Below, one piece after another: positions 4,546 to 45,000 of a stretch of 64,000 bases of DNA. The first letter of the stretch is position 1. Each line of letters begins with the position of its first letter. The position numbers were made by a program, and so were the translations under genes. This stretch comes from Antechinus flavipes (taxonomy: Eukaryota): assembly GCF_016432865.1 (NCBI RefSeq), contig NC_067403.1, positions 258,664,001 through 258,728,000 of the forward strand, given 5' to 3'. The notes beneath the pieces were generated by a model. The model was given only the letters and a program-made list of their open reading frames with translations. It made no database searches and was not told where the DNA came from.

Positions 4546-7189
4546 CAAGCCAGTATCGGAATGAAGTTTTGAGTGGCTGGAACCATGGCTTTCAAGGTTG
4601 AAATAAGGAAAAATTTACATACTGTTATGAAGACAGATATAGACATATAAACATATATATATGTGTACACTTCTTCATTCACAAAATACATAATACAATA
4701 TACATATATCTACAAGAGCATATAGTAATATACACAAATAAGCATACAATATAATGTGCCTTTTTATAATTACTCATTTTTATAATTTCTTATTTTTCTA
4801 AAAAATAGCTTTATCATTAAGGATCATGCCTAAGTTTGAAGGGACAGGTGGATTCTCCAAGGGCCTCCACATCTGTGAATATAACCCACTTGAAGGAATT
4901 GCAAAACAGCCTTTACTGATGCAGATGTGGCTTGTGAATTTGAGAATGAAATAAATTGGAGGCAAGAGGGAAGAAGGGAGAGGTCACAGAATGAACTGCC
5001 TCTCAGTCTCCTTGTATCCTTATCATCCTCTACATGAAAGGATCTGTTCTGCTGGTCAGAATTAGATCCCCAGCAGCCACAAGCAGGTGGCTCCCATAAC
5101 ACTTTATATCTTCAAAATATAGGCAAAGATAGTTTTCAACTTTCTTTCTTGCAAAACCTTGTCTTCCAATTTTTCTCCCTCTGTTCCCCCTTTTTCCTCC
5201 CTTTGACAGCAAGTAATCCAATATATGTTAAATATATGCCATTCTTCTATATGAATTTCCACATTTATAATGTGGCACAAGAAAAATCAGATCAAAAAGA
5301 GGAAAAAATTAGAAGTTTAAAAAAGCAAGCAAACAACAATAAAATGGTAAAAATATTCGGTTATGATCCACGTTTTAGTCCTCTCAGTCTTGTCGGATGC
5401 AGATGGCTCTCTCGATCCCAAGTCTATTGGAATTGTCCTGAATGGCCTCCATGAGCTCTTATTTCCAAATCTAGTAATCTTTTCTTAATTCTTATTCTCT
5501 TTGATATTCTTGCCTCCCTAAATTTTTGAATAACCTCTCCTTGTTGCACTCTTTCACATCTGACTGTTCCTTCTCAGTATCCTTTCCTAGATTCTAATCC
5601 AGATAGTACCATTTAACCACGGTTAATCTTTGTTTTTTTTTTTTTTTTTTAACTCCCACAGCTTAGCAAAGTGCCTGGCACACAGAAGGTACTTAATAAA
5701 TGGTTACTAACTTCCTGACTGACTGTTGATGCCATCAGGACTGTAGAGAAAGGTCATCCATATAATTCTCTTTGAAACTATTATAGGGTTTTGTTTTGGG
5801 AACCTGAAACTTACATTTTGGCAACTGAAATATACTGGGATTTGAGGTGTTATGATGCTCAAATGAGATAGTGGAGGTGTAACTTTTGGTAAGGTACTTC
5901 TATCATTTTTAAGTACTATAGAAATGCCAATTAAAGTAATAATATATGATGGTCAGTGTTAATAATACTGGTGATGATGATGATGATCATTTAGTCACCC
6001 ACCCTCCCTTTTCTTTATGTTCTCTTTCTTGGAGGCGAAGTTGCTTTACCTTACTGTAGATGTGGTGGAACTATATTCCTTACTATAACTGCTGTTCCAG
6101 TTTACTCCAAATCATACATGACCATCCCTATTCTAGGTGTTAGGAAGGAATATATAGCTGTGCATGAGGACTCAAAGTGGGGTTAACAAGGATAAGAATG
6201 CGTAGCATATATGAGGCTGGGCAGATGATGTCGCATTGGGAGGTTCAGAATAGTATCTTTCTTGTGGTACTTGCACAGTTCTGGAAATGAGTATTTTTCA
6301 ATCACTGACTTTTTAAGTGGTGAATATGTATGGAACTAACATATTATACCCACTTTCACAGAGTGAATAAAAAAGTAAAATCAAAGTAATCTAAGATCAG
6401 GACTAATCAGACATTAGGAGATTTGATATGTGGCTGTACTTTGGTTCTAGTGTCTTGTTAGGATTTGTATCTCAAAGCAACATCAGATCAAACATCTCTT
6501 GACCATAGCTTTTTGTTCCTGAGATTGTGTGTGCCTCTGATACCCCCCTTTCAAGGCAGATTATTGACCTTTCTTTATCCTATATTTGGATAATCTTCAT
6601 CTATGATGCCCCAATGCCATATTTTTTTTCTCTTCTCCTCCTATCTTCCTTTCCATTATCACTTTAATGAACATGGGATCTCTAAGCTTGGCTTTCTTTT
6701 TTTCCCCCTCAAAAATTCTTTGGTAAGAGTAGACTCTTAAAGAAGAGTATAATTTCTCCCAAATTTCAGCATAAAAGCATTTGACCCTCATTTAGTCCAA
6801 TGAAAATATTCAAACTTGTTTGCCTTTTTTTTCCTGAGGTAATTGGGGTTAAGTGATTTGTCCAGTGTCACATAGCTAGGATGCGTTAAGTGTCTGAGAC
6901 TTTCTTAAACTGTAAAACAAGGAGCTTTTTTTTTCCCATGGCAAATGCTCAGCCTTTCTTTAAATCTGCATGACTGTGCCTGGATACTATTACTCTTGTG
7001 ATCTAGTCACTACTGAAGAGTACCTATGTGGAAGAATCTTTATGCATTTGACTTAGAATTTTAACTCTTTCTCTACTTCTCTCTATATACAGCTAATGAA
7101 CTATTTCACCTTCATATCTGTTACTATATATTTCCGTGTAAATTAAAGTCTTTTAATTTCTCATAATTGTATGGGGATGATTAGACAAA

Positions 7190-7302
7190 GGATGCAAAGG
7201 AAGTAAATGAAGGGGTTCATGCAGGTGTTCATACAAGGCAGGTGAGAAGTGAGCCAGTTATGCATGAGCATATTATACATGCGCGCGCGCACACACACGT
7301 AC

Positions 7303-7333
<31 letters not shown>

Positions 7334-8021
7334 CACACACAGAGCAGGAGCAAGAAGCTGGTAAACAGAGTCAGAAGCTAGAGCCTGAAAGCATGCCAGT
7401 GCCAGGAATTGCACTGGACCCTCAGCAGCAGAGTCAGGCTGGACATGCACAGGATGCAGGTAAGGAGGGAGGAACCACAGGAAATAGATAATGAAGAACT
7501 TGTCGCAGGCACGGCCAGGAGACACATAATTCTGAGCGACAAACTCTGTGACTTCCATCATCCCATCCAGAGCCTAGAGCCCACTCCTCTGCAGACTTGT
7601 GCTTGGGGTTGTGACATAGCTACTAGATGGGGAGGAGCACAGGTGGACAGCGCTTGGTGCTGATCACGGCCAGGAGACTCTGGCCCATATTGTACAATAG
7701 GTATCTGAAGTAGAGCATGATTTCAAACTTTCAACAGTCACGCAAATATCCAATAAATCTAGTGATGGAGATCAGAAGGGAGCAGTAAGGCAAGAAGGCA
7801 TCAACTCCCACCAGATTGAGGATGTAGATCTAGAAGGGGTTCCTCTGAATGTGAAAACCCTGGAGCCACACACTGTTCCAGTCCAAGCAGGGCAATGAGC
7901 AGAAAGGGGATCTACGTCCAGTTATATCCACAAAATTTTCCAGCCACACTCCCATTTGCTCCTCTCTCAATGGCACTGTCATTAACATATTCTCATTGCT
8001 GGGAGTGGGGGACACAGCCAT
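7190..8021 (-). pseudogene. MRGPR pseudogene A
   Basis: Starts MAVSPTP then frameshifts. TM2 (IYILNLVG), TM3/ICL2, TM5 and TM7 (MNPFIYF) remnants lie in different frames. TM6-ECL3 is replaced by a microsatellite and there is no C-tail. Confidence 0.9.
7274..7341. repeat. Compound (CG)(CA)(TA) microsatellite inside pseudogene A
   Basis: 68-bp unbroken purine/pyrimidine alternation. Confidence 0.95.
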
Positions 8022-8133
8022 GGGAGGTAATCCCAGCCCCACAAAACCTGCTCCTCTAAGATGCCCTGGAGACACAGAGACAGAGATGGGTATTAGGGCT
8101 ATTTACTCCCATCTCCACCTTCAAGAGTGAGAG

Positions 8134-8865
8134 CATGATGCAAAAATTTTAAATAAAATATTAGCAAAGAAATTGCAGCAACTTATCAGCAGGATAATAC
8201 ACTAAACCAAGTGGGATTTATACCAGGAATGCAAAGTTGGTTCAGTATCAGGAAAACTATTAATATAATCAACCATATCAATAACAAAACTGAAAGAAAT
8301 TATATGATAATCTCAATAGATGCAGAAAAAGATTTTGACAAAATATAGCACGCATTCCTATTAAAAACAGTAGGGAACATAGGGATAAAGGGAACTTTCT
8401 TTAAAATAATGAGCAATATCTATCTAAAAGCAGAGCAGCAAGCATTATTTGTAATGGAGAGAAGCTGGATGCATTCCTAATTAGATCAGGGGATGATACG
8501 AGGATGTCCATTATCACCACTATTATTCAACATTGCACTAGAAATATTGGCTTTAGCAATAAGAAAAGAAAAAGAAATTACCACTATTAGAATAGGCAAT
8601 AAGGAAATAAACCTATCATGCTTTGTAGCTGATATGATGATTTACTTAGAGAATCCTAGAAAATCATCCAAAAATTTAGTGAAAACAATTAACAGCTTTA
8701 GCAAAATTGCAGGATATAAACTAAACCCACACAAATCACCAGCATTTCTATGTATTACTGACAAAGCCCACCAGCAAGAGATAGAATGAGAAATTCTATT
8801 TAATAGTCTGCAGACAAAATAAAATACTTAGGGATCTACCAGACAAGACAAAACTGAAAATTTTT
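8134..8865 (+). mobile_element. L1 ORF2 (RT) fragment
   Basis: [17 protein letters not shown] and FVADMMIYLENP motifs. Duplicated at 20580-21300. Confidence 0.9.
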
Positions 8866-9733
8866 AAGCCCTCAGTGTTCTCTAGGGACTTTAACTTCTA
8901 GGAGGGACACTGACCTGCAAGCACATGACCTTTAATTACTTAGGGAATTATGGAATTTTATTGAACAGTCTCCCAAGAGTAGTTTAGAACAAATTGGTGA
9001 GGTTTGAAAGGGACCCCAAAAGGTTAGGTTCATAGACCAAATCGTGTTGTGAGGTATCTCAAAAGAATTTGCAGGCTTGAACCCATTTCCAGGTCAAAGG
9101 ACAAAGTTTATTGTAAATGCCAATTGAAGCAGTCTAAATTTCAGGAGAAGCAAGGAGACAAATTTATAAAATTAATCATATTATTGATATGCTAACTTAG
9201 TGCCCTAGAGGTAGAACCAAATGATCTCAAGAATTTGATTATCACTGATCAGAAGATCTAGGAATATCTTAAAGCCAGAAGATTTTGGAATCATTGACAG
9301 ATAAAATTATTAGAACAATAGCATTCTTTGATCTCAGGGCCTCAGGATTGATTCCAGAGCCAGAAGATTTAGAGTCATTGACAGATTGTTAGAAGAGAAG
9401 CCCCCCTAAAGTTAGGGGACATTAAAATTATTGATGTCTCCCCCAGAAGCTATATTGCATCAAAAGGAAGTATCGGTATTGCTAAATTCATTTTCATTTT
9501 TTCTTCCTGAAGTTACCCTTTGGCAAAAAGTCCAGAGAAATAGAACTTTAGTTGGCTCTTCTGCATACTAGAGACTAAACAAAATATCACTCTAAATGGG
9601 TGAATCTAAGTGGAAAATTTGATCAAAACTTTTTGTGTTGTTGATACAAATTGTTACAAAATTACATTTTTGATAACTCTAAGAGAATTAGTAAAATTAG
9701 GCTGAAAACCTAAACCTTAGCTACAAATGGTGA

Positions 9734-13356: not shown

Positions 13357-14307
13357 TCATGGTGAGGTCTCCTGGGTGTTGCTGTTGGAGATGTCCCTCA
13401 TCCCACCACCCAACTCCTGCTCCTCCCCCAGGGCTCTCTGCAGGACCAGCCTGAGGGGCTCCCTCCTTTTATGCCCTCGTTTTCCCACGAAGAAGTAAAT
13501 GAAGGGATTCACGCTGCTGTTCACACAAGCCAGGGACTGAGAGAGGCTATAAGGCATGAGTTCTATTCTGAGGCGATGATTTATGAAATCCTCGATCCCC
13601 CAGGGCAGGCCACAGAGCAGGAACACGAGGATGAGCAGGACCAAGAGGTAGAGCCTGGGGGGCCGCCGGAGCCGGGAGCTGCACTGGACCCTCAGCAGTA
13701 GAGTCAGGCTGGACAAGCACAGGACGCAGGTGAGGAGGAGGAACCACAGGAAATAGATAATGAGGAAGTTGCCACAGAAGGGTTGAGGAGCCACATACAA
13801 CACAGTGACAAACTCTGTGACTTCGATCATCCCGGCCAGAATCCAGAGCCCGGCGCAGACCACAGCAGACAAGTGCTTGGGGCGGCGACATCTGTACCAG
13901 AAGGGGAAGAGCACGGAGAGACAGCGCTCGGTGCTGATCGCGGCCAGGAGGCTCATTCCCGCAGTGTAGGACGTGTATTGGAGGTAGACCACGGCCGTGT
14001 ATATTATAGAATAAAAATAGGTAGCAAGTCTTCTCAAGGAGATCAGAAAGGAGCAGCAGAGGAAGAGGGCGTCGGCCGCCGCCAGGTTGAGGATGTAGAC
14101 AGAATAGGGGGTCCTCCGGATGCGGAAGCCCAGGAGCCACAGGACGGCGCTGTTCCCCAGCAGCCCAAGGGAGACAACAAGCAGAGAGAACACGTCCATC
14201 CAATCATAAAAATGAAATCCTCCAGGTGTCCCAGAAGCCTCACTCACATTTAGCTTTCCCTCCGTAGCACCATATTCCTGTTGCTGGGGTGTAGGGGACA
14301 TAGCCAT
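13357..14307 (-). CDS. MRGPR-family GPCR copy 2, 316 aa, duplicate of copy 1
   Basis: YILNLAAAD, STERCLSVLFPFWYRC, LCGLP and NSSVNPFIYFF motifs. Flanks are homologous to those of copy 1. Acceptor 45 nt upstream of the ATG. One-codon deletion in TM6. Confidence 0.92.
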   Translation of the reverse strand: MAMSPTPQQQEYGATEGKLNVSEASGTPGGFHFYDWMDVFSLLVVSLGLLGNSAVLWLLGFRIRRTPYSVYILNLAAADALFLCCSFLISLRRLATYFYSIIYTAVVYLQYTSYTAGMSLLAAISTERCLSVLFPFWYRCRRPKHLSAVVCAGLWILAGMIEVTEFVTVLYVAPQPFCGNFLIIYFLWFLLLTCVLCLSSLTLLLRVQCSSRLRRPPRLYLLVLLILVFLLCGLPWGIEDFINHRLRIELMPYSLSQSLACVNSSVNPFIYFFVGKRGHKRREPLRLVLQRALGEEQELGGGMRDISNSNTQETSP

Positions 14308-19689: not shown

Positions 19690-20473
19690 GCGAAGGAAGT
19701 AATTGAAGGGGTTCATGCAGTTGTTCACACAAGGGAGAAAGGAGACAGTCAGGCATGAAATGTTTGTGGGAGTGATAATTTATGAAATCCCAATCCCCCA
19801 GGGCAGGCCACGGAGCAGGATCAAGAAGCCGGTAAGAAGCCAGTAGGTAGAGCCTGGGAGGCTGCCAGCACCAGGAGCTGCACTGGACCCTCAGCAGCAG
19901 AGTCAGGCTGGACATCCATGGGATGCAGATGAAGAGGAGGAACCATAGGAAATAGATAATGAGAAAGTTGAGACAGAAATGTCGAGGATACACATAAATC
20001 TGAGCAACAAACTCTGTGACTTCTATCATCCTGGCCAGAGCCTAGAGCACACCCCGAAGCAGACTTGTGCTTGGGGCAGTGGCATAGGTACCAGATGGAG
20101 AAGAGCACAGGTGGATAGCGCTTGGTGCTGATTATGGCCAAGAGGTTCAGGCCCATGTTCTAGAAAAGGTATCTGAGGTAGAGTATGATCTTGAACTTTA
20201 AATTGTCACACAAATATTCAACAAATCTAGTTATGGAGATCTGAAAGAAGCAGCAAGGCAAGAAGGTGTCAGTCCCCCGCCAGGGTGAGGATGTAGACCG
20301 AGAAGGGATTCCTCTGAATGCTGTTCCTCACCAGCCCAAGCAGGGCAATTAGCCGAGGGGGATCTGTGTCCAGTTATATCCACAAAATTCTCCAGGCAGA
20401 CTCCCATTTGCTCTGCTTTCAGTGGCACTGTCATTAACATATTCTCATTGCTGGGGGTGGGGAATACAGCCAT
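19690..20473 (-). pseudogene. MRGPR pseudogene B, duplicate of A
   Basis: Same early frameshift as A (MAV.PTPSNENMLMTVPL). Fragmented TM3-TM7 ORFs at 19658-20029 and 19821-20156. Confidence 0.9.
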
Positions 20474-21300: not shown

Positions 21301-21359
21301 AAAAAATTTTAAGCACTCATTGTTCTCCAGGGACTTTGACTTCCAGGAGGGTCAATAGA

Positions 21360-21468
21360 TGTTGGAAACTTTACAAACTGCTAACTCATTAGAGTTGATA
21401 GATTATTGATCTGATCTTACAAGAAGATGTTTTGGGCCAGAACCTGAAACAAGGTACTAAATAGAACT
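21360..21468 (+). mobile_element. 5' fragment of an ERV LTR
   Basis: Homologous to the start of the solo LTR at 25115, including the inner tgtt(a/t)tgggccagaac motif. Confidence 0.75.
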
Positions 21469-21768
21469 GGAGAAGTGTACAAGGTACATACAAAATAGAT
21501 TTTAAAAAGTAATCCTGGAGAGGGAGCCTCCTTTAGAAAGAGGGATGTAAGCCAAGTACCTGAAGAGGAAGAAGGTATAAGAAAGACTAGAAAGGTAGGA
21601 AAGAGCCATGTCATCAAGGATTTCAGTTGCCAAACAGAATTTTATATTAGATGCTTTATATTAGGGACTCACTGGAATGTATGGAATGTGGGCAATGAGG
21701 TGTGTCACATGGTCTACCTGTATTTTAAGAAGATCCATTGGAAAGCTGAGTAGAGGATGGACCTGTTA
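21469..21768 (+). repeat. Direct repeat X, upstream copy (L2-like sequence)
   Basis: About 97% identical by eye to 24428-24905 once the L1 insert there is removed. Both copies end in ggacc-tgtta. Confidence 0.9.
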
Positions 21769-22200
21769 TGGGCCAGAACTTGAAACAAGGTGTTAACTCA
21801 CTGGAATGGATAGAGACAATGTTCATGTACTTAGTTCACGCCTTTAAGTGTTCACACATTAGCGTTCCAGATTCACAAGTTCAGTGGAGGAGATTCACAA
21901 GTGACAACTCCCACAATCCCACTCTTGGAGGAGAAGTCAACTTTTGAGTTCACACCTCTAAAAGAACATATAAAAGGACAAGCCCACTAAAAGCTCTCAG
22001 AACCTCAGCCAAGAGTCAGTGGGGGAGATTGAGACGAAGGATTCGGAAGAGGAGAAGCTGAAGCTGGCAGAGGCAGAGGCAGAGACAGAAGCAAAGGACT
22101 AGCAACAGGAGCTCTTGGAACCAAGGAGGGAGATAGGCCTCTAAGAAAGCTAACTGGGCCCAAGGAAGGGGACAAGACTTGGAAGGAGAAAATAAAGATT
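21764..22200 (+). mobile_element. ERV LTR (U3-R), truncated just after its AATAAA
   Basis: Homologous to the LTR at 25216-25840 but lacks the last ~140 bp (U5). TATA at 21969, AATAAA at 22191. Confidence 0.85.
21969..21975 (+). promoter_or_regulatory. LTR TATA box, candidate promoter of the R3HCC1L retrocopy
   Basis: TATAAAA at the expected U3 position. There is no ATG between it and the R3HCC1L start at 22212. Confidence 0.6.
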
Positions 22201-22211
22201 GAGGTAGCATC

Positions 22212-24242
22212 ATGCAGCCTGATGTTGAGAAATGCACACCTCGGGCCAGAAAGCCAGATATGGCCCTTTATGTACCCAAAGCTCGAAGAGATTCAGTACT
22301 TCCTTTATCAAGTCATCAGGAAATGAATTATAGTCACCTGAATGCTATAGTGAAGCAAGGGCAAGAAGAAAGTCATGTGCCCTCGAAGAATGATGTCTTC
22401 AGAACTAGTTCTGAACTTCAGAGACCTATTAGTAATCCTAGCAGACAAGAGCACAAAGCTAGGGATGGAAAGAGACCTAATTCAAAATCAAAAAAAGGTA
22501 CATACTTCAAAGAAAGAAACAGAGGAAAATTCCATGCTCAAAAGGGAACTGCAGAGTCCAAAGAAATGTTCAACAAAAATCAACAAAAGATCCTAAATCC
22601 TAGTAGTTTTTCCAAAGTACCTTCACAAATACATTTTAAACCAAAGAAAGAAGAGAAATTTATGGATTCCAAAAGCAACGATATGACAGTATCACAAGGA
22701 CTACTTATTTCACAATCTAGTATGGAAACCTGTGAGACTCAGACTTCAAGTATACCATTCCAAAGTGTGAAATTATGTGATTTCAGAAAGGAAGAACTAA
22801 GTGGGACGAGTTATGCAGAAGGAGACTTGAAAAACAGTGTAAACGCTGATTGTAAGGTAGTAGAGATGGTGTCTACTTCTCAGTTTTCAGATGATCTGGT
22901 AGGTTGCAATTCTATTTTGAATCCTGACCATGTGCTAGCATCTAGCACAAAAGATGATGCACCCATGTGCTATGACCCTGATAATTTAAGTGACTTTGCT
23001 GATGAAATATTTACAGGTAGGGAACAGCAGAATGACAGTGACAACACTAACCAAGCATGTATGAGCATTACAGATGGCATATCTGATGAGACATGTGTGG
23101 GCAGCACCTCGACAATTGTGGGCGGAATCACTGAACAGGCTTGTAGCAACATCAATAGTTTGCTAGACTGTATGGGAGTAAGTACTTACTTAACCCCTCT
23201 TCTAGTAGCTAATAGCACGGAGTGTGAGAATGAAAATTCAAGCCGCTTGACAGTTTGTGCAGACAGTTACACTGAAGATAGTTCATCCAGTTATCAGGAG
23301 TCCATGGGAGGACTAACAAAGGACTTGTCAGAGTATACCTCTTTAATACCTATAAAGGAGGAAGCATCCAGCAATCATGGTTCCTGTTTAGACTCCGAAC
23401 TCTGTATGTTAAATAAGCCTGAATTGCTTTCCAGCAAGTCCTTGAACAGTAATCTGGATGGTGCAGATGACATCACAGAGTCTTTGAATAATCTAAGAAC
23501 TGGTGAAGAGTTCAAAACAATTGAGAATGATGCCCCTGGGAAAGTAGAATATACAGTATCTTCAGAACAACAATCAGAACTGAAAGCTCCTCATCCTTCC
23601 TCCAATGCTGAAAGTGCTTCTACAGAGGAAAGCTGGGAGTCTTTATTTAATGATGATGGAGACTGCCTGGATCCGCGACTTCTAGAAGAGTTATCGGGGA
23701 ATTCGAAGAACGGGAAGAGTCTCCAGGAACCTAGATTTGATTATTACAACTGTGAAGTTCCTGAGCTTGACATCAGCGATTGTGAACTTCCTCATGTCAT
23801 TGAAATCTATGACTTCCCTCAGGAATTTCGCACCGAAGACCTCCTACGAGTCTTTTGCAGCTATCAAAAGAAGGGATTTGCTATCAAATGGGTGGATGAC
23901 ACACATGCTCTAGGAGTGTTCTCCAGTCCAATTACAGCCCGCGACGCCCTGAGCAGTAAGCACATGATGGTGAAGATCCGGCCGCTCTCTCAGGCCACAA
24001 GAGCAGCCAAGGCCAAAGCAAGAGCTTGCGCTGAGTTTCTCCAGCCCGCCAAGCCTCGCCCTGAGACCTCGGCGGCCCTGGCCCGGCGGTTAGTGATCAA
24101 TGCTCTTGGGGTGAGGAGTCAGCGCACCAAAGCGGAGCGGGATGCCGAGCTCAAGAAACTGCAGGAAGCTCGTGAAAGAAAGCGGTTGGAAGCAAAGCAA
24201 AGGGAGGACATCTGGGAAGGCCGGGACCAGGCCGCTGTGTGA
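22212..24242 (+). CDS. R3HCC1L: Intronless, intact retrocopy of R3HCC1L (GIDRP88), 676 aa
   Basis: The N-terminus RARKPDMALYVPKARR and the C-terminus EESWESLFNDDGDCLDPRLL...PHVIEIYDFPQEFRTEDLLRVFCSYQKKGF...KWVDDTHALGVFSSPITARDAL...ERKRLEAKQREDIWEGRDQ match the R3HCC1L protein as I recall it. It is one continuous ORF across what are several coding exons in the parent gene. Kozak has A at -3. Confidence 0.95.
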   Translation: MQPDVEKCTPRARKPDMALYVPKARRDSVLPLSSHQEMNYSHLNAIVKQGQEESHVPSKNDVFRTSSELQRPISNPSRQEHKARDGKRPNSKSKKGTYFKERNRGKFHAQKGTAESKEMFNKNQQKILNPSSFSKVPSQIHFKPKKEEKFMDSKSNDMTVSQGLLISQSSMETCETQTSSIPFQSVKLCDFRKEELSGTSYAEGDLKNSVNADCKVVEMVSTSQFSDDLVGCNSILNPDHVLASSTKDDAPMCYDPDNLSDFADEIFTGREQQNDSDNTNQACMSITDGISDETCVGSTSTIVGGITEQACSNINSLLDCMGVSTYLTPLLVANSTECENENSSRLTVCADSYTEDSSSSYQESMGGLTKDLSEYTSLIPIKEEASSNHGSCLDSELCMLNKPELLSSKSLNSNLDGADDITESLNNLRTGEEFKTIENDAPGKVEYTVSSEQQSELKAPHPSSNAESASTEESWESLFNDDGDCLDPRLLEELSGNSKNGKSLQEPRFDYYNCEVPELDISDCELPHVIEIYDFPQEFRTEDLLRVFCSYQKKGFAIKWVDDTHALGVFSSPITARDALSSKHMMVKIRPLSQATRAAKAKARACAEFLQPAKPRPETSAALARRLVINALGVRSQRTKAERDAELKKLQEARERKRLEAKQREDIWEGRDQAAV

Positions 24243-24417
24243 ACATCATCCAGAGAAAGAGATAATTTCACGGATTCAGAAGGCTCCAGGCTAAAAGACC
24301 TTACTGAGTTTCCTTTGTTTGTGAGCAAGGCAGAGACTATGGGAACAGAGAAAAAGTAATATGCTCCATCGGTCAGCTCGGCTTTCTGGATTTGGAAGGA
24401 ACTTATGTTCTAAAAGT

Positions 24418-24434
24418 GAGGGGAGAGGGAGAAG
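24418..24434 (+). other. Polypurine tract at the left edge of repeat X'
   Basis: 17 purines (gaggggagagggagaag) followed by TG. Its function as a PPT is inferred. Confidence 0.45.
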
Positions 24435-24476
24435 TGTACAAGGTACATACAAAATAGATTTTAAAAATTAATCCTG

Positions 24477-24639
24477 TATACTGTAACCTATTCAACATGT
24501 AAAGGATTGCTTGCCATCTGGGGGAGGGGTGGAGGGAGGGAGGGGAAAAATCGGAACAGAAGTGAATGCAAGGGATAATGTTGTAAAAAAAAAAAAAACT
24601 ACCCTGGCATGAGTTCTATCAATAAAAAGTTATTAAAAA
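24477..24639 (+). mobile_element. Short 5'-truncated L1 3' end inside X'
   Basis: L1 3' UTR with G-rich tract and A tail. TSD aaaaa(t/g)taatcctg at 24463-24476 and 24640-24653. Absent from X. Confidence 0.88.
24621..24626 (+). terminator. AATAAA from the L1 insert, candidate poly(A) signal for the retrocopy
   Basis: Sense-strand AATAAA followed by an A-run, ~380 nt after the stop codon. Confidence 0.45.
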
Positions 24640-25114
24640 AAAAAGTAATCCTGGAGAGGGAGCCTCCTTTAGAAAGAGGGATGTAAGTCAAGTTCCTGAA
24701 GAGGAAGAAGGTATAAGAAAGACTAGAAAGGTAGGAAGGAGCCAAGTCATCAAGGATTTCAGATGCCAAACAGAATTTTATATTAGATGCTTCAGGTTTA
24801 GGGACTCACTGGAATGTATGGAATGTAGGCAATGAGGTGTGTCACATGGTCTACCTGTATTTTAAGAAGATCCATTGGAAAGCTGAGTAGAGGATGGACC
24901 TGTTAAATAACCCTGCAAGCACATGACCTTTAATTATTTAGGGAGTTATGGAATTTTATTGAACGGTCTCCCAAGAGCAGTTTAGAACAAAATGTTGAAG
25001 TTTGGAAGGGACCCCAAAAGGTTGGGATCATAGACCAAAGGGTGTTGCGAGGCATCTCCAATGAATTTTCAGCCTTGTCAAGGGACAAAGTTTATTGTAA
25101 ATGCCAATAGAAGC

Positions 25115-31894: not shown

Positions 31895-32848
31895 TCACAA
31901 TGTCATCTCTTGGATGCTGGTGTGGGGCATGTCACTTGTCCCACCTCCCAATTCTTGCTCATCCCCCAGAACCCTCTGGAGGATCACTCTGAGGGGCTCC
32001 CTCTTTCTTTTAAAGCTTTGGCTGCCCAGGAAGAAGTAAATGAGGGGGTTCATGCTGCTGTTCACACAAGCCAATAATTGAAAAAGCCAGTGAGGCAGGA
32101 GCCTTCCCTTGAGGTGATAACATATGAGATCCTCGATCCCCCAGGGTAGGCCACAGAGCAGGAACACGAGGACCGTGAGCAGGACCAGGAGGTAGAGCCT
32201 GGGGGGCTGCCGGCTCTGGGAGCTGCACTGGACCCTCAGCAGCAGAGTCAGGCTGGACACGCACAGGACACAGGTGAGGAGGATGAAACACACACCCTCC
32301 AAGATATTAAAGCGACAGAGAACATGCCAGGATATATGAGAGCAAGTGACAAGCCCATTCACCCAGAGTGATCCGACCAGAGCCCAGAGGACAGCGCAGA
32401 CCGAAGCCGACGTGTGCTTGGGGCGGTGACATCGGTACCAGATGGGGAAGAGCACGGAGAGACAGCGCTCGGTGCTGATCGCCGCCAGGAGGCTCATGCC
32501 CGTAGTGTAGAATAGGTAATTGAGGTTCAACATTATTTCATGCTTGAAAAGATCGTGAAAATATCGAACAAAGTTTTCTATGGAGTCCAGCAAGGAGCAG
32601 CAGAGGAAGAGGGCGTCGGCCCCCGCCAGATTGAGGATGTAGACGGAGAAGGGGGTCCTTCGGATGCGGAAACCCAAGAGCCACAGGACCACGCCGTTCC
32701 CCATCAGCCCAAGGGGGGCAATGAGCAGAGAGGGGATCTGCATCAATTCACTCCCCAAAACGGATCTATTACATCTCACTGCTGCCTTGTCATAAACATG
32801 TTCCACGTGCTCAGGTGTGGGAGACGTAGTCATGGTGGGTGCTCCCAT
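31895..32848 (-). CDS. MRGPR-family GPCR copy 3, 317 aa (the ATG at 32833 may be the real start)
   Basis: YILNLAGAD, STERCLSVLFPIWYRC, LCGLP and NSSMNPLIYFF motifs. The TM4/TM5 Cys pair is present. The second ATG has a CCACC Kozak context. Confidence 0.92.
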   Translation of the reverse strand: MGAPTMTTSPTPEHVEHVYDKAAVRCNRSVLGSELMQIPSLLIAPLGLMGNGVVLWLLGFRIRRTPFSVYILNLAGADALFLCCSLLDSIENFVRYFHDLFKHEIMLNLNYLFYTTGMSLLAAISTERCLSVLFPIWYRCHRPKHTSASVCAVLWALVGSLWVNGLVTCSHISWHVLCRFNILEGVCFILLTCVLCVSSLTLLLRVQCSSQSRQPPRLYLLVLLTVLVFLLCGLPWGIEDLICYHLKGRLLPHWLFQLLACVNSSMNPLIYFFLGSQSFKRKREPLRVILQRVLGDEQELGGGTSDMPHTSIQEMTL

Positions 32849-41178: not shown

Positions 41179-42090
41179 CTATTCTTGCTCTTCCCCCAGA
41201 GCCCTTTGGAGGACTAGCCTGAGGGGCTCCCTCCTTTTACGCTTTTGGCTGCCCAGGAAGAAGTAAATGAAGGGATTCGCGCTGCTGTTCACACAGGCTA
41301 GTAGTGAAGAGAGCCATTGAGGCATGGACTTTAATTGGAAGCGATTATTTAAGAAATCCCCAATCCCCATGGGCAGGCCGCAGAGCAGAAACACGAGGAC
41401 AGTGAGCAGGACCAGGAGGTAGAGCCTGGGGGGCTGCCGGCGCTGGGAGCTGCACTGGACCCTCAGCAGCAGAGTCAGGCTGGACACGCACAGCACTGGG
41501 GTGAAGAGGAGGAACCATAGGAACCGGATGATGACGAAGTGGGGACAGAAATGGGGAGCAAACTTAAAAAAACATAGGACAAAATTTGTAACCGCGGGCA
41601 GGGTGATCAGAACCCAGAGCCCAGCGCAGACCACAGCAGACGTGTGCTTGGGGCGGTGACATCGGTACCAGATGGGGAAGAGCGCGGAGAGACAGCGCTC
41701 GGTGCTGATCGCGGCCAGGAGGCTCAGGCCCACAGTGTAGGAGATGTATCTGAGGCAAAGCGTTGCCATAAAGACGAAAGAGGAATAAAGAAATCTAACA
41801 GTTTTATTTATGAAAATCAGAAAGGAGCAGCAGAGGAAGAGGGCGTCGGCTCCCGCCAGGTTGAGGATGTAGACGGAGAAGGGGGTCCTCTGGATTCGGA
41901 AGCCCAGGAGCCACAGGACCACGCCGTTCCCCAGCAGCCCAAGCGCGTCAATGAGCAGAGAGGAGATCCGTATGCACTTACCGAAGTCAAATCCTCCAGG
42001 TGCTCCAGGAACTAAAGTCCCATTTGCACTTCTCTCCGTTGTGTTGTCAGAAACATATCCCAGCTGCTCAGATGTGGAGGACATAGCCAT
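41179..42090 (-). CDS. MRGPR-family GPCR copy 4, ~303 aa from MAMSSTS, with a short C-tail
   Basis: All 7 TMs and motifs present (STERCLSALFPIWYRC, LCGLP, NSSANPFIYFF). The ATG at 42090 has CCACC context and aligns with the paralog starts. The ORF track extension to 42282 starts at a TTG and runs through the splice-acceptor pyrimidine tract. Stop follows EEQE. Confidence 0.88.
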   Translation of the reverse strand: MAMSSTSEQLGYVSDNTTERSANGTLVPGAPGGFDFGKCIRISSLLIDALGLLGNGVVLWLLGFRIQRTPFSVYILNLAGADALFLCCSFLIFINKTVRFLYSSFVFMATLCLRYISYTVGLSLLAAISTERCLSALFPIWYRCHRPKHTSAVVCAGLWVLITLPAVTNFVLCFFKFAPHFCPHFVIIRFLWFLLFTPVLCVSSLTLLLRVQCSSQRRQPPRLYLLVLLTVLVFLLCGLPMGIGDFLNNRFQLKSMPQWLSSLLACVNSSANPFIYFFLGSQKRKRREPLRLVLQRALGEEQE

Positions 42091-45000
42091 GGTGGGTGGT
42101 CCAGCCTCAGGAAGCTTTTCTCCTTTCAGACGCCCTGGGAACACGAAGACATAGGAGGGAATCAGGGATTTTTCTCCAGATTTAGTCGTATTCCTATTTT
42201 CAAGAGTTAAAACCTCTTCTTCCCCACTCCCTATCTCTAGGTTGCAGTTAGGTGGCTCCACAGTGTGCAGAAGTTTGAGCATAGAGTTAAGACTTGAATC
42301 AAAAACCTAGTCTCAGACACTAGTGAAAGGAGTAATTCACTAACATTAATAACAATTCATTTACGATTAAGACTTTTCCTTCTGATTTCCTCATTCAGAA
42401 ACCAATTTCCGAAGGACATCAGGATGAGATTATCCAAATCCTCAAGGTACCTGCTTTTCCATCATGAGTGGGACTCCAAACCAACCAGAAGATGTTACAA
42501 AGAGAATCTTATATAGGTGTTATTCATTACCCCCCAAATTCTCCCCCCACGTGGTTTATTGTTCATTGACTGGGTAGAGATGAATGCTTTAGTCCAGATA
42601 TCTGGACCCAACCCAAGCTCATCATGCTCTCCCTAGGTGCAGCTGAATGTTTTCAATTCACCTTTTTGATTGTTAACCAATCAGAGTTGATTTTCACCCT
42701 CAGTAACATACTCTTTTCCAAAGACTTTTTAAGTTTTCAATGTTCTCCAGGGTACATCTTTGGCTTCCAGTCGGGACATTGACCTCAATCCATTATTTGC
42801 AAGCCATAATTAATAAATTTATTAATTATCCAGAAATTATGTCTCTGAAACTTTTCATTCATCACATAAAACGTGTGACCCCAGACAAAATGTAAGGAAT
42901 TCAGCATAGGTTATACATGTATAGTTTTGTAAAATATTTTCATAAAAATCATATTGGGAAAGAAAAAAACAGACCAAAAAAAACATCTCAAGAGAAATAA
43001 ACTTTTAAAAAGTATGCTTCAAACTGTATCCAGACACTATCAGCTCTTTCTCTAGGTGTGGATACAATTTTTCCTAAGTCCTTCAGAGTTGTCTTGGATC
43101 ATTGAATTATTGAGTTATGTCATTCACAGCTTACAATATCTTACAATATTGTTGATAAAATGTACACAATGCTTTTCACATTGTAGTAAGTCATGGAAGT
43201 CTTTCCAGGTTTTTCTGAGAATATCCTGCTCATTCTTTCTCATAGCACAATAGTATTCCATCATAATTACATACTACAATTTACTCAGCCGTTCCTTAAT
43301 TTATAGTTATCTCCTCAATTTCCAATTATTTGCCCCCCCAAGAGAGATACTAAAATATTTTGTACATATAGGTCATTATCCTTTTTTAAAAATCTCTTTT
43401 GATATACAAATTTTGTATTGTTAGTAAGTTAGATTTTTTAAAATAAGATTCTAAAAGCTTAGGAAACAGAAGAATTCTCTTGGACTAACAGCATGATCCC
43501 ACTTATGTGATGTTCATAAATTCTATATTTAATAGAATTAAACATGATATATTTGATAGAATTAAATATAATATATTTAATAGAATGTTAATTCTATTAA
43601 CTTCAAAATTGCCTAGAGAAAAATTAGGAGAAGTTCAGGGCTGATTTAATGTTGAGTCTTGTTATATGTTGTATCTGTATCTGTTTTCTAAATGAAGAAC
43701 TAAGTTTAAGAAGGTTAGATTCTTTATTTCAGATAGAAAAGGACCTTATGTGATTAGAAAATCTTTAAGAGAATCGGAAATAAATGTCTGTTTTATTTGC
43801 TTTGTTTGTGGTTTGGGCTAACTAATAGGTGTTTTATTTATGCCTTTTCTTTTGATGTGATCAATCAAAAGAAACATGTTACAAAAAATACACTTTCAAA
43901 AAGAGGACAAATCTCTTTTCCCTCCCTCCATTTCCAATACTGGCCATGTTGGAGATTGCTGAGATAAAAGAAGGATATTGAAAACTAATATGCCAAAAAA
44001 AAGATTAGAAACCAAATTTGTGACAAAGTATTAATCAGTTTTTTCTTTTAGTTTAATTCATTTATTGATAGAGAAAAGATTATCACTTTCCTCTAATTTA
44101 ACTAGTCATATTAAAGGATGAGCAATTTAGAAAATTTAAAAGAATTGGTTTGGTTCTTTGGATAACTCCAAGAAACAAAGTAGTAATGGAAAATTGGGAA
44201 TATCACCATTTTTAAAAAAATATAAGCCAACTAAAAATTATAAAATCTTGTCCAAAATAAGGTTTAGTTATTGCTAAATTTTTAGTTATTAGAATTTTAA
44301 AATATTGTAATTGTAGCAAATTAGAGAATCTAATCCATCCCTGTATGTAAAAAGGAAATAATAAATATTTATAACTATCTCTCAGGAAGAAGATTTGAAG
44401 ATCTCTTCATTAGATGAGACCATAGACCCCTTAAAAAAGTGTCATTGCCTCAGAGTTTTGCTTCAGTTTCTTTTATTGTAGGCTGGACAATTTTAACCCC
44501 CACATCAGCACAACTAAGCATCATATGAACTAAATCCAATAGTATACTCAGTGTTCCACAACCATAGTCACCCAAATCTAGGAAGGAGGGAAAGAAATAA
44601 TTCCTTTAATGGTTTTCTGCACCAAACTGCAATAAATACTTGCTCAATACTTACTGTTTTGAGATACGGGGTTTGGAATGATTTTCACCACTAGGTTTGG
44701 AACACAGACAATGAAACTGTCCCTACTCTGAAGTAGCTGATATCCTACTGAGAGTAGGCAGAAGGGAGCAGAGTGCAGCACCAGAAGCTCACCTCATGCC
44801 AAACCAGATAATTGTCCAGCACAGAACACCACTGACTGCAAATATCTAGATTTTGATTTCTATAGCTTCAGCTTTTCTTAATTGGTAAATGATGTGCTTT
44901 AGGGACAAATATCGGTGAAACAGTGGGTCTGTGAATCTAGCCTGAGAATAGGAGAAAAGCAAGGAGATATTGGATATACTCACCCTGAACCAGAGTCTGG

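Follow-up and report, generated by a model that had tools for sequence, protein, structure and literature searches.

A 3.5-kb block at positions 21360–24905 of a 64,000-nucleotide stretch of the Antechinus flavipes genome (NCBI RefSeq assembly GCF_016432865.1, contig NC_067403.1, positions 258,664,001 to 258,728,000; hereafter the window) holds a single, spliced and internally permuted copy of the host gene R3HCC1L. We read this copy as the work of an endogenous retrovirus (ERV) reverse transcriptase on a host mRNA, with terminal repeats created de novo and a one-ended insertion by integrase, and give this reading a probability of about 0.6. Machinery of the long terminal repeat (LTR) type, which an earlier note on the same sequence had favoured, explains the block better than L1 because the block starts exactly at the unique 3′ region (U3) of an LTR, carries a 6-bp duplication of the kind made by that LTR family and has no poly(A).

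A spliced R3HCC1L copy and its parent gene

The copy carries an open reading frame (ORF) at 22212–24242 (window coordinates throughout unless a contig is named; all features of the block lie on the + strand), 2031 bp long and free of stops and frameshifts, as first reported, and encoding 676 amino acids. Its closest protein is P0002, named R3HCC1L of Antechinus flavipes at source and translated from six GT–AG-spliced exons on G000:C2, the parent gene. Exon mapping to G000:C2 shows that six GT–AG introns of the parent are absent from the copy, five of them coding, so both the R3HCC1L identity and the spliced state proposed earlier stand. The description of the gene as intact does not: in the large parental exon, 328 nt are exchanged for 10 nt of filler (22943–22952, from the parent alignment), which removes a net 106 codons and keeps the frame (782 versus 676 amino acids). 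Exact matches to this filler in parent introns alone are uninformative as to its source.

Upstream of the ORF, window positions 21469–22197 are 94% identical to C2:614928172–614928889, where an old interspersed repeat, here called X and presumably L2-like, is followed by an LTR of a second type, both within a parent intron. Alignment to the parent shows that the 5′ part of this LTR (21764–22197) is exonised as far as a GT donor, from which splicing reaches the AG of the exon that holds the ATG, 14 nt short of that codon; those 14 nt (22198–22211) are the 5′ untranslated region (UTR) part of the parent's large exon, and the splice junction 22197/22198 is unique, with one match genome-wide at up to two mismatches. 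The LTR–ATG junction, previously taken as the site of mRNA capture, is therefore an ordinary splice inherited from the parent. At its other end the copy has a shortened 3′ UTR (24243–24402, by the same alignment), which in the parent runs about 400 nt further to the first ATTAAA. The parental region itself (L036, G000:C2:614928107–614928890) combines the old intronic repeat, bearing a copy-specific TATAAA, with an LTR whose donor lies just past its AATAAA, and makes up an R3HCC1L exon, either an alternative first exon or a cassette exon, that the retrocopy alone has recorded.

The block is a real insert. A paralogous unit in the same window (unit 1, 7011–9133) is collinear with both flanks and lacks the block, and the absence of poly(A) at the right end and the flanking AATAGA and AATAAC are likewise as the earlier note had described. 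An assembly chimera is extremely improbable in the face of six exact splice junctions, sequence that has diverged independently from that of the parent by 3–4%, an L1 tip with its own target-site duplication (TSD) in only one of two repeats, and clean collinear flanks. Read data speak on both sides: the highest share of the sampled words in any listed sequencing run is 0.69, and six of 24 listed runs (three organisms, two studies) hold 0.51–0.69, which is suggestive only, these being word shares and not alignments (11 rows at 0.20 or below and four added by study or label are left out). The parent and other fetched loci account for 1294 of 3671 31-mers (0.35).

The earlier suggestion of a dispersed family is not borne out by the unique splice junction or by a C-terminal search in which 9/9 candidates were scored, which recovered, besides the parent and this copy, two old copies at 64–76%, leaving one young copy. 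Sequence at least 96% identical to X occurs only in this copy and the parent among the best 40 of 122 candidates. The two old copies are broken R3HCC1L retrocopies (L043, G000:C4:370672000–370674700; L044, G000:C3:304333500–304334800), and the one on C4 uses an upstream 5′ UTR exon (C2:614903972–614904071) in place of the LTR exon.

Direct host repeats and their borders

The permutation, a feature overlooked in the earlier note, lies downstream of the ORF. The 3′ UTR of the copy jumps back 50.8 kb to C2:614928140–146, 32 nt upstream of the start of the left X, after which the copy traverses X a second time and ends after the first 5 nt of the intronic LTR. A 300-nt host segment consequently flanks the copy as direct repeats: X in its parental place upstream of the ORF (21469–21768, equal to parent C2:614928172–614928472) and X′ after the 3′ UTR (24428–24905). 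At the jump lies a heptamer (24396–24402) common to the parent 3′ UTR and parent position 614928140, with no GT donor. It occurs twice in a 3.75-kb model transcript, at precisely the two jump points, and the chance of at least 7 nt of microhomology at the jump is 0.00075. A TATAAA stands at −33 from the parent jump point, as is true of 0.7% of parent-locus positions, and was not seen in 11 other X-like copies aligned; nor was extra homology of the upstream 5′ UTR exon seen at the jump. Over 301 columns, X, X′ and the parent form a star with 7, 3 and 5 private differences, respectively, which implies that the repeat was made together with the copy and not later.

A non-collinear junction of this kind could also come from a circular RNA spanning the X–LTR exon to the last exon, if reverse transcription went round it about 1.1 times and the product was inserted with the help of an LTR. 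Such junctions and the lack of poly(A) are the hallmarks of circular RNA-derived pseudogenes, whose flanks are enriched in LTRs (Dong et al. 2016, PMC4897178). Both hallmarks and a nearby LTR are found here, the landing site resembles a splice acceptor (polypyrimidine tract plus AG), and a circle accounts for the star-like repeats. The donor side argues otherwise, reading GA and not GT in the parent and AA in the two old retrocopies, so that a canonical back-splice donor is absent; the 7-nt microhomology points to a template switch, and a circle does not predict borders resembling priming sites. The present junction further departs from those pseudogenes in falling in the middle of the 3′ UTR and in a product longer than one unit. 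We consider a circular origin unlikely.

The borders of the repeats resemble those of a provirus, in which the primer-binding site (PBS) follows the left repeat, the polypurine tract (PPT) precedes the right repeat, and first-strand transfer links the 5′ end of the RNA with a repeat close to its 3′ end (PMC3185662). The left repeat ends exactly before TGGGCCAGAAC, at a PBS mimic (21769–21786) that matches the PBS as in L109 at 10/12 nt, and X′ ends exactly where this mimic begins in the parent. LTR ends in this genome read CA-TTT-TGGCG (56 matches), and the PBS type as in L109 has 1414 genomic matches after CATTT; we take this common type to be that of Lys tRNA. As a match to the L109-type PBS, the right-border mimic ranks 1/3691 at 12 nt and 3, 4 and 2 at 10, 14 and 18 nt, and over 13 PBS variants and four lengths 12/3731 positions score as well, or 34 with a tolerance of ±1. 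The PPT mimic is a host purine tract before X′ (24404–24426), with 12 nt that are identical to sequence preceding the PPT in ERV copy L094. With the family PPT taken from two 3′ LTR copies, this tract ranks 1/3738 at 16 nt, the left repeat starting 1 nt further, and for 9/3753 positions a rank-1 PPT end is found no more than 1 nt away. If independent, the two borders would coincide by chance about 2 times in 100,000 (34/3731 × 9/3753, calculated by hand, for sites chosen post hoc). Provirus-like borders are thus present as mimics whose strength varies with variant and length.

PBS-like words also occur inside the U3 of both LTR types in the block, at 21431–21451 and 21769–21786, and in the left-end family the word is preceded by TTT, as in a true PBS. 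Elsewhere, L101 and L102 (G000:C1:237913853–237913904) are two LTR 3′ ends that face each other and are joined through a near-palindromic PBS, and close inverted or paired PBS matches of this kind recur, for example at C1:87547692 and 87547745.

Insertion ends, setting and age

The sole part of the block foreign to the parent is its left end, 21360–21468, which comprises the first 109 nt of a young LTR family with 6-bp TSDs and is joined to X without microhomology. As the earlier note had recognized, the block begins at the exact TG of the LTR: among the best 40 of 625 candidates, 39 other copies are 97–99% identical over LTR nucleotides 1–109. TSDs were located in 11 of 19 family copies, 10 of them 6 bp and one 5 bp. 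Median singleton divergence of the 19 copies is 1.6% (range 0.5–20%, with some aligning poorly), matching the value of about 1.8% per lineage for the cassette. We read AATAGA (21354–21359) and AATAAC (24906–24911), which share four exact positions and differ by one indel, as candidate left and right TSDs; the corresponding empty site in unit 1 is 83% identical. No closer empty-site paralogue was found among the best 40 of 535 candidates, which gave unit 1 (84%) and one partial match only. Of the two neighbouring solo LTRs whose 6-bp TSDs were invoked earlier, the first is flanked by AGAAGC/TGAAGC and the second has no clear 6-bp duplication; the left-end family, at 10/11, gives better support.

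At the right, the block finishes in host sequence followed by 5 nt (TGTTA) from the intronic LTR of the parent; there is neither a right LTR nor a CA end, so the block is not the LTR-bounded, non-autonomous element first envisaged. As to marks of integrase, the TG at the left is exact, the 6-bp TSD is imperfect and the right end lacks CA. The repeats themselves start with GG, finish with TA and contain nothing but 'U5-like' leader sequence, in place of TG...CA termini and a U3–R–U5 order.

These ends bear on classical LTR capture, the scheme closest to the earlier note, in which mRNA would have replaced the ERV interior, with a viral LTR on either side, and both LTRs would later have been largely lost. 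Three human and eight mouse cases of such LTR-driven copying, defined by two viral LTRs, are known, and it is rare in mammals (PMC5131818). The true U3 start and 6-bp TSD at the left speak for it, and the 12-nt identity between host X and the ERV region before the PPT could be a switch point. Host sequence runs on through that 12-nt match without switching, and viral PBS, leader, PPT and right LTR are all absent. LTR sequence of the one family is confined to the 109 nt at the left, the inner LTR being parental, and microsimilarity is missing at the U3–X join, the 7-nt match being between host sequences. Capture also leaves the X/X′ repeat unexplained, the block exists in a single copy, and we judge this scheme very unlikely.

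X′ contains a later insertion of its own, a 163-nt 3′ tip (24477–24639) that we take to be of L1 type, partly from its likeness to L1 copies in the window, with an A-tail and a 14-bp TSD; it offers a built-in contrast to the cassette's own ends. Processed retrocopies made by L1 carry TSDs of roughly 7–20 bp. The block resembles them in its missing introns and differs in having no poly(A) tail, no long TSD and no collinearity with the mRNA. An L1 retrocopy of the LTR-exon isoform, rearranged afterwards by a tandem duplication at microhomology and two deletions and lying beside a separate solo LTR, is quite unlikely. In its favour, L1 is the dominant agent of retroposition in mammals (PMC5408686), the flank TC/AATA bears a loose resemblance to an L1 nick site, the locus is a rearrangement-prone tandem cluster and the ORF bears a deletion with filler. 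Such a history requires at least four events whose ends coincide at a TSD, a U3 start, a PBS mimic and a PPT mimic; X and X′ show no excess of shared changes relative to the parent; and no poly(A) or long TSD survives at the cassette ends while the tip inside X′ keeps both.

The copy and the parent share seven amino-acid states against the Sarcophilus and Sminthopsis proteins, with one conflicting site, indicating that the copy arose after the Sarcophilus and Sminthopsis lineages split off. Non-coding differences between copy and parent number 43 in 1219 nt, and pairwise pN/pS of the copy is 0.38–0.53. Amino-acid changes fall 16 on the retrocopy lineage and 12 on that of the parent (four ambiguous), and six versus one in the conserved C-terminus, a distribution that suggests relaxed constraint. 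Under neutrality the ORF would have escaped stops with a probability of 0.18–0.38 and frameshifts with a chance of roughly 0.04–0.2 (a hand estimate based on six gaps over 1219 non-coding nt, some of them at the margins of alignments). Most probably the copy is a pseudogene-in-waiting, relaxed or neutral, and it should not be called functional; it may be expressed, since there is an LTR promoter region ahead of its ATG. A possible G-to-A skew was set aside, as 21 G>A and 10 C>T differences stand beside 16 A>G and 18 T>C, none of them polarised.

The surrounding window holds a tandem cluster of 7tm_1 receptor genes (1186–2163, 13357–14307, 31895–32848 and 41179–42282, all on the − strand), presumably of MAS-related type, in 12-kb duplicated units, with degenerate receptor copies near 7340–8130 and 19690–20330.

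A proposed mechanism and its precedents

We are evenly divided on a more specific proposal, that the block is a germline fossil of an event in which retrovirus-type enzymes treated a cellular mRNA as a genome, and cryptic tRNA priming, a 7-nt transfer and a cryptic PPT turned host sequence into LTR-like repeats. A minor parent transcript would start at the heptamer, at a putative site about 33 nt past the TATAAA, and be packaged by an ERV. Packaged tRNA-Lys would prime at the PBS mimic, 333 nt downstream of the start, and the resulting 333-nt minus strong-stop DNA would run off the 5′ end and transfer to the heptamer's one further copy, in the 3′ UTR, which would serve as a 7-nt 'R'. The PPT mimic would then prime the plus strand, with a second transfer or re-copying writing X at both ends. 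A non-homologous jump or join would add the 109 nt of viral U3 and with them one true att end, which integrase would insert, the unprocessed right end being joined by integrase or by host repair. These steps agree with the textbook course of retroviral reverse transcription (PMC3185662). The loss of 318 nt and the L1 tip would date from insertion or later. Dasyurid genomes carry amplified betaretrovirus-like ERVs (PMC11334065).

Several observations weigh against this account. It does not explain how U3 was joined to X, where homology is lacking; the two TSD copies match imperfectly, with an empty site only 83% alike; and the jump point doubles as a splice-acceptor look-alike (2.3% by chance). 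Ranked by duplex energy, the PBS mimic is only 2, 11, 5 and 11 of 70 TGG sites (at 12, 10, 14 and 18 nt), and 3–41 of 71 with other PBS variants. The copies closest in sequence to the left-end LTR (L101 and L103, 104–106/109) bear a different Lys-type PBS that fits more poorly: against the PBS of L100, L101- and L103, 16–91 positions score as well as the mimic, and as many as 151 do so for L101+. The LTRs whose PBS matches best are only 81–83% like the left-end LTR (9/10 matched), and the left PBS is the host version and not a copy of the tRNA. The rank of the PPT mimic depends on length (11–139 at 12 and 20 nt), its end lies 1 nt off the border, and all border tests are post hoc.

In retrofection, or the formation of cDNA genes by retroviral particles in culture (Linial 1987; Dornburg and Temin 1988), cellular RNA is reportedly copied by retroviral reverse transcriptase and integrated without L1 hallmarks. 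The present case differs in being a germline copy, and probably in its terminal repeats, formed de novo with borders at PBS and PPT mimics. LTR-mediated retrocopies (Tan et al. 2016, PMC5131818, where FAM8A1/HERV-K and maize Bs1 are cited) share with it a spliced mRNA without L1 hallmarks, microhomology at a switch point and an LTR end at the border. In that type both viral LTRs flank an mRNA that takes the place of the internal region, whereas here the viral part is limited to 109 nt, host sequence makes up both the terminal repeats and the priming-site mimics, and switching was from host to host. The ends recall aberrant one-ended proviral integrations, known for avian sarcoma–leukosis virus (ASLV) and human immunodeficiency virus (HIV), with one normal integrase end and one that is a poor substrate (PMC5041404); those concern viral DNA with variable target duplications at the bad end, whereas the insert described here is mostly host DNA, and its duplication has the 6 bp normal for the LTR family. 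The literature searched, with supplements and older retrofection texts outside its scope, yielded no report of this copy or of terminal repeats made from host sequence at PBS and PPT mimics.

The block is real and present in a single copy, and it is probably a variant of retroposition by LTR machinery. Its significance is limited by its being one copy, of at most putative function. It supplies a new signature that can be searched for: direct repeats with PBS and PPT mimics at their borders and a permutation at microhomology. PBS-like words in U3 could prime read-through transcripts over such LTRs, which predicts further cases, and some pseudogenes described as derived from circular RNA could be products of strand transfer. 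If our reading is true, gene copies in mammals would have a third route of origin, one that escapes screens requiring two viral LTRs or back-splice junctions, and this copy in Antechinus flavipes would be a snapshot of a host RNA gaining LTR architecture.

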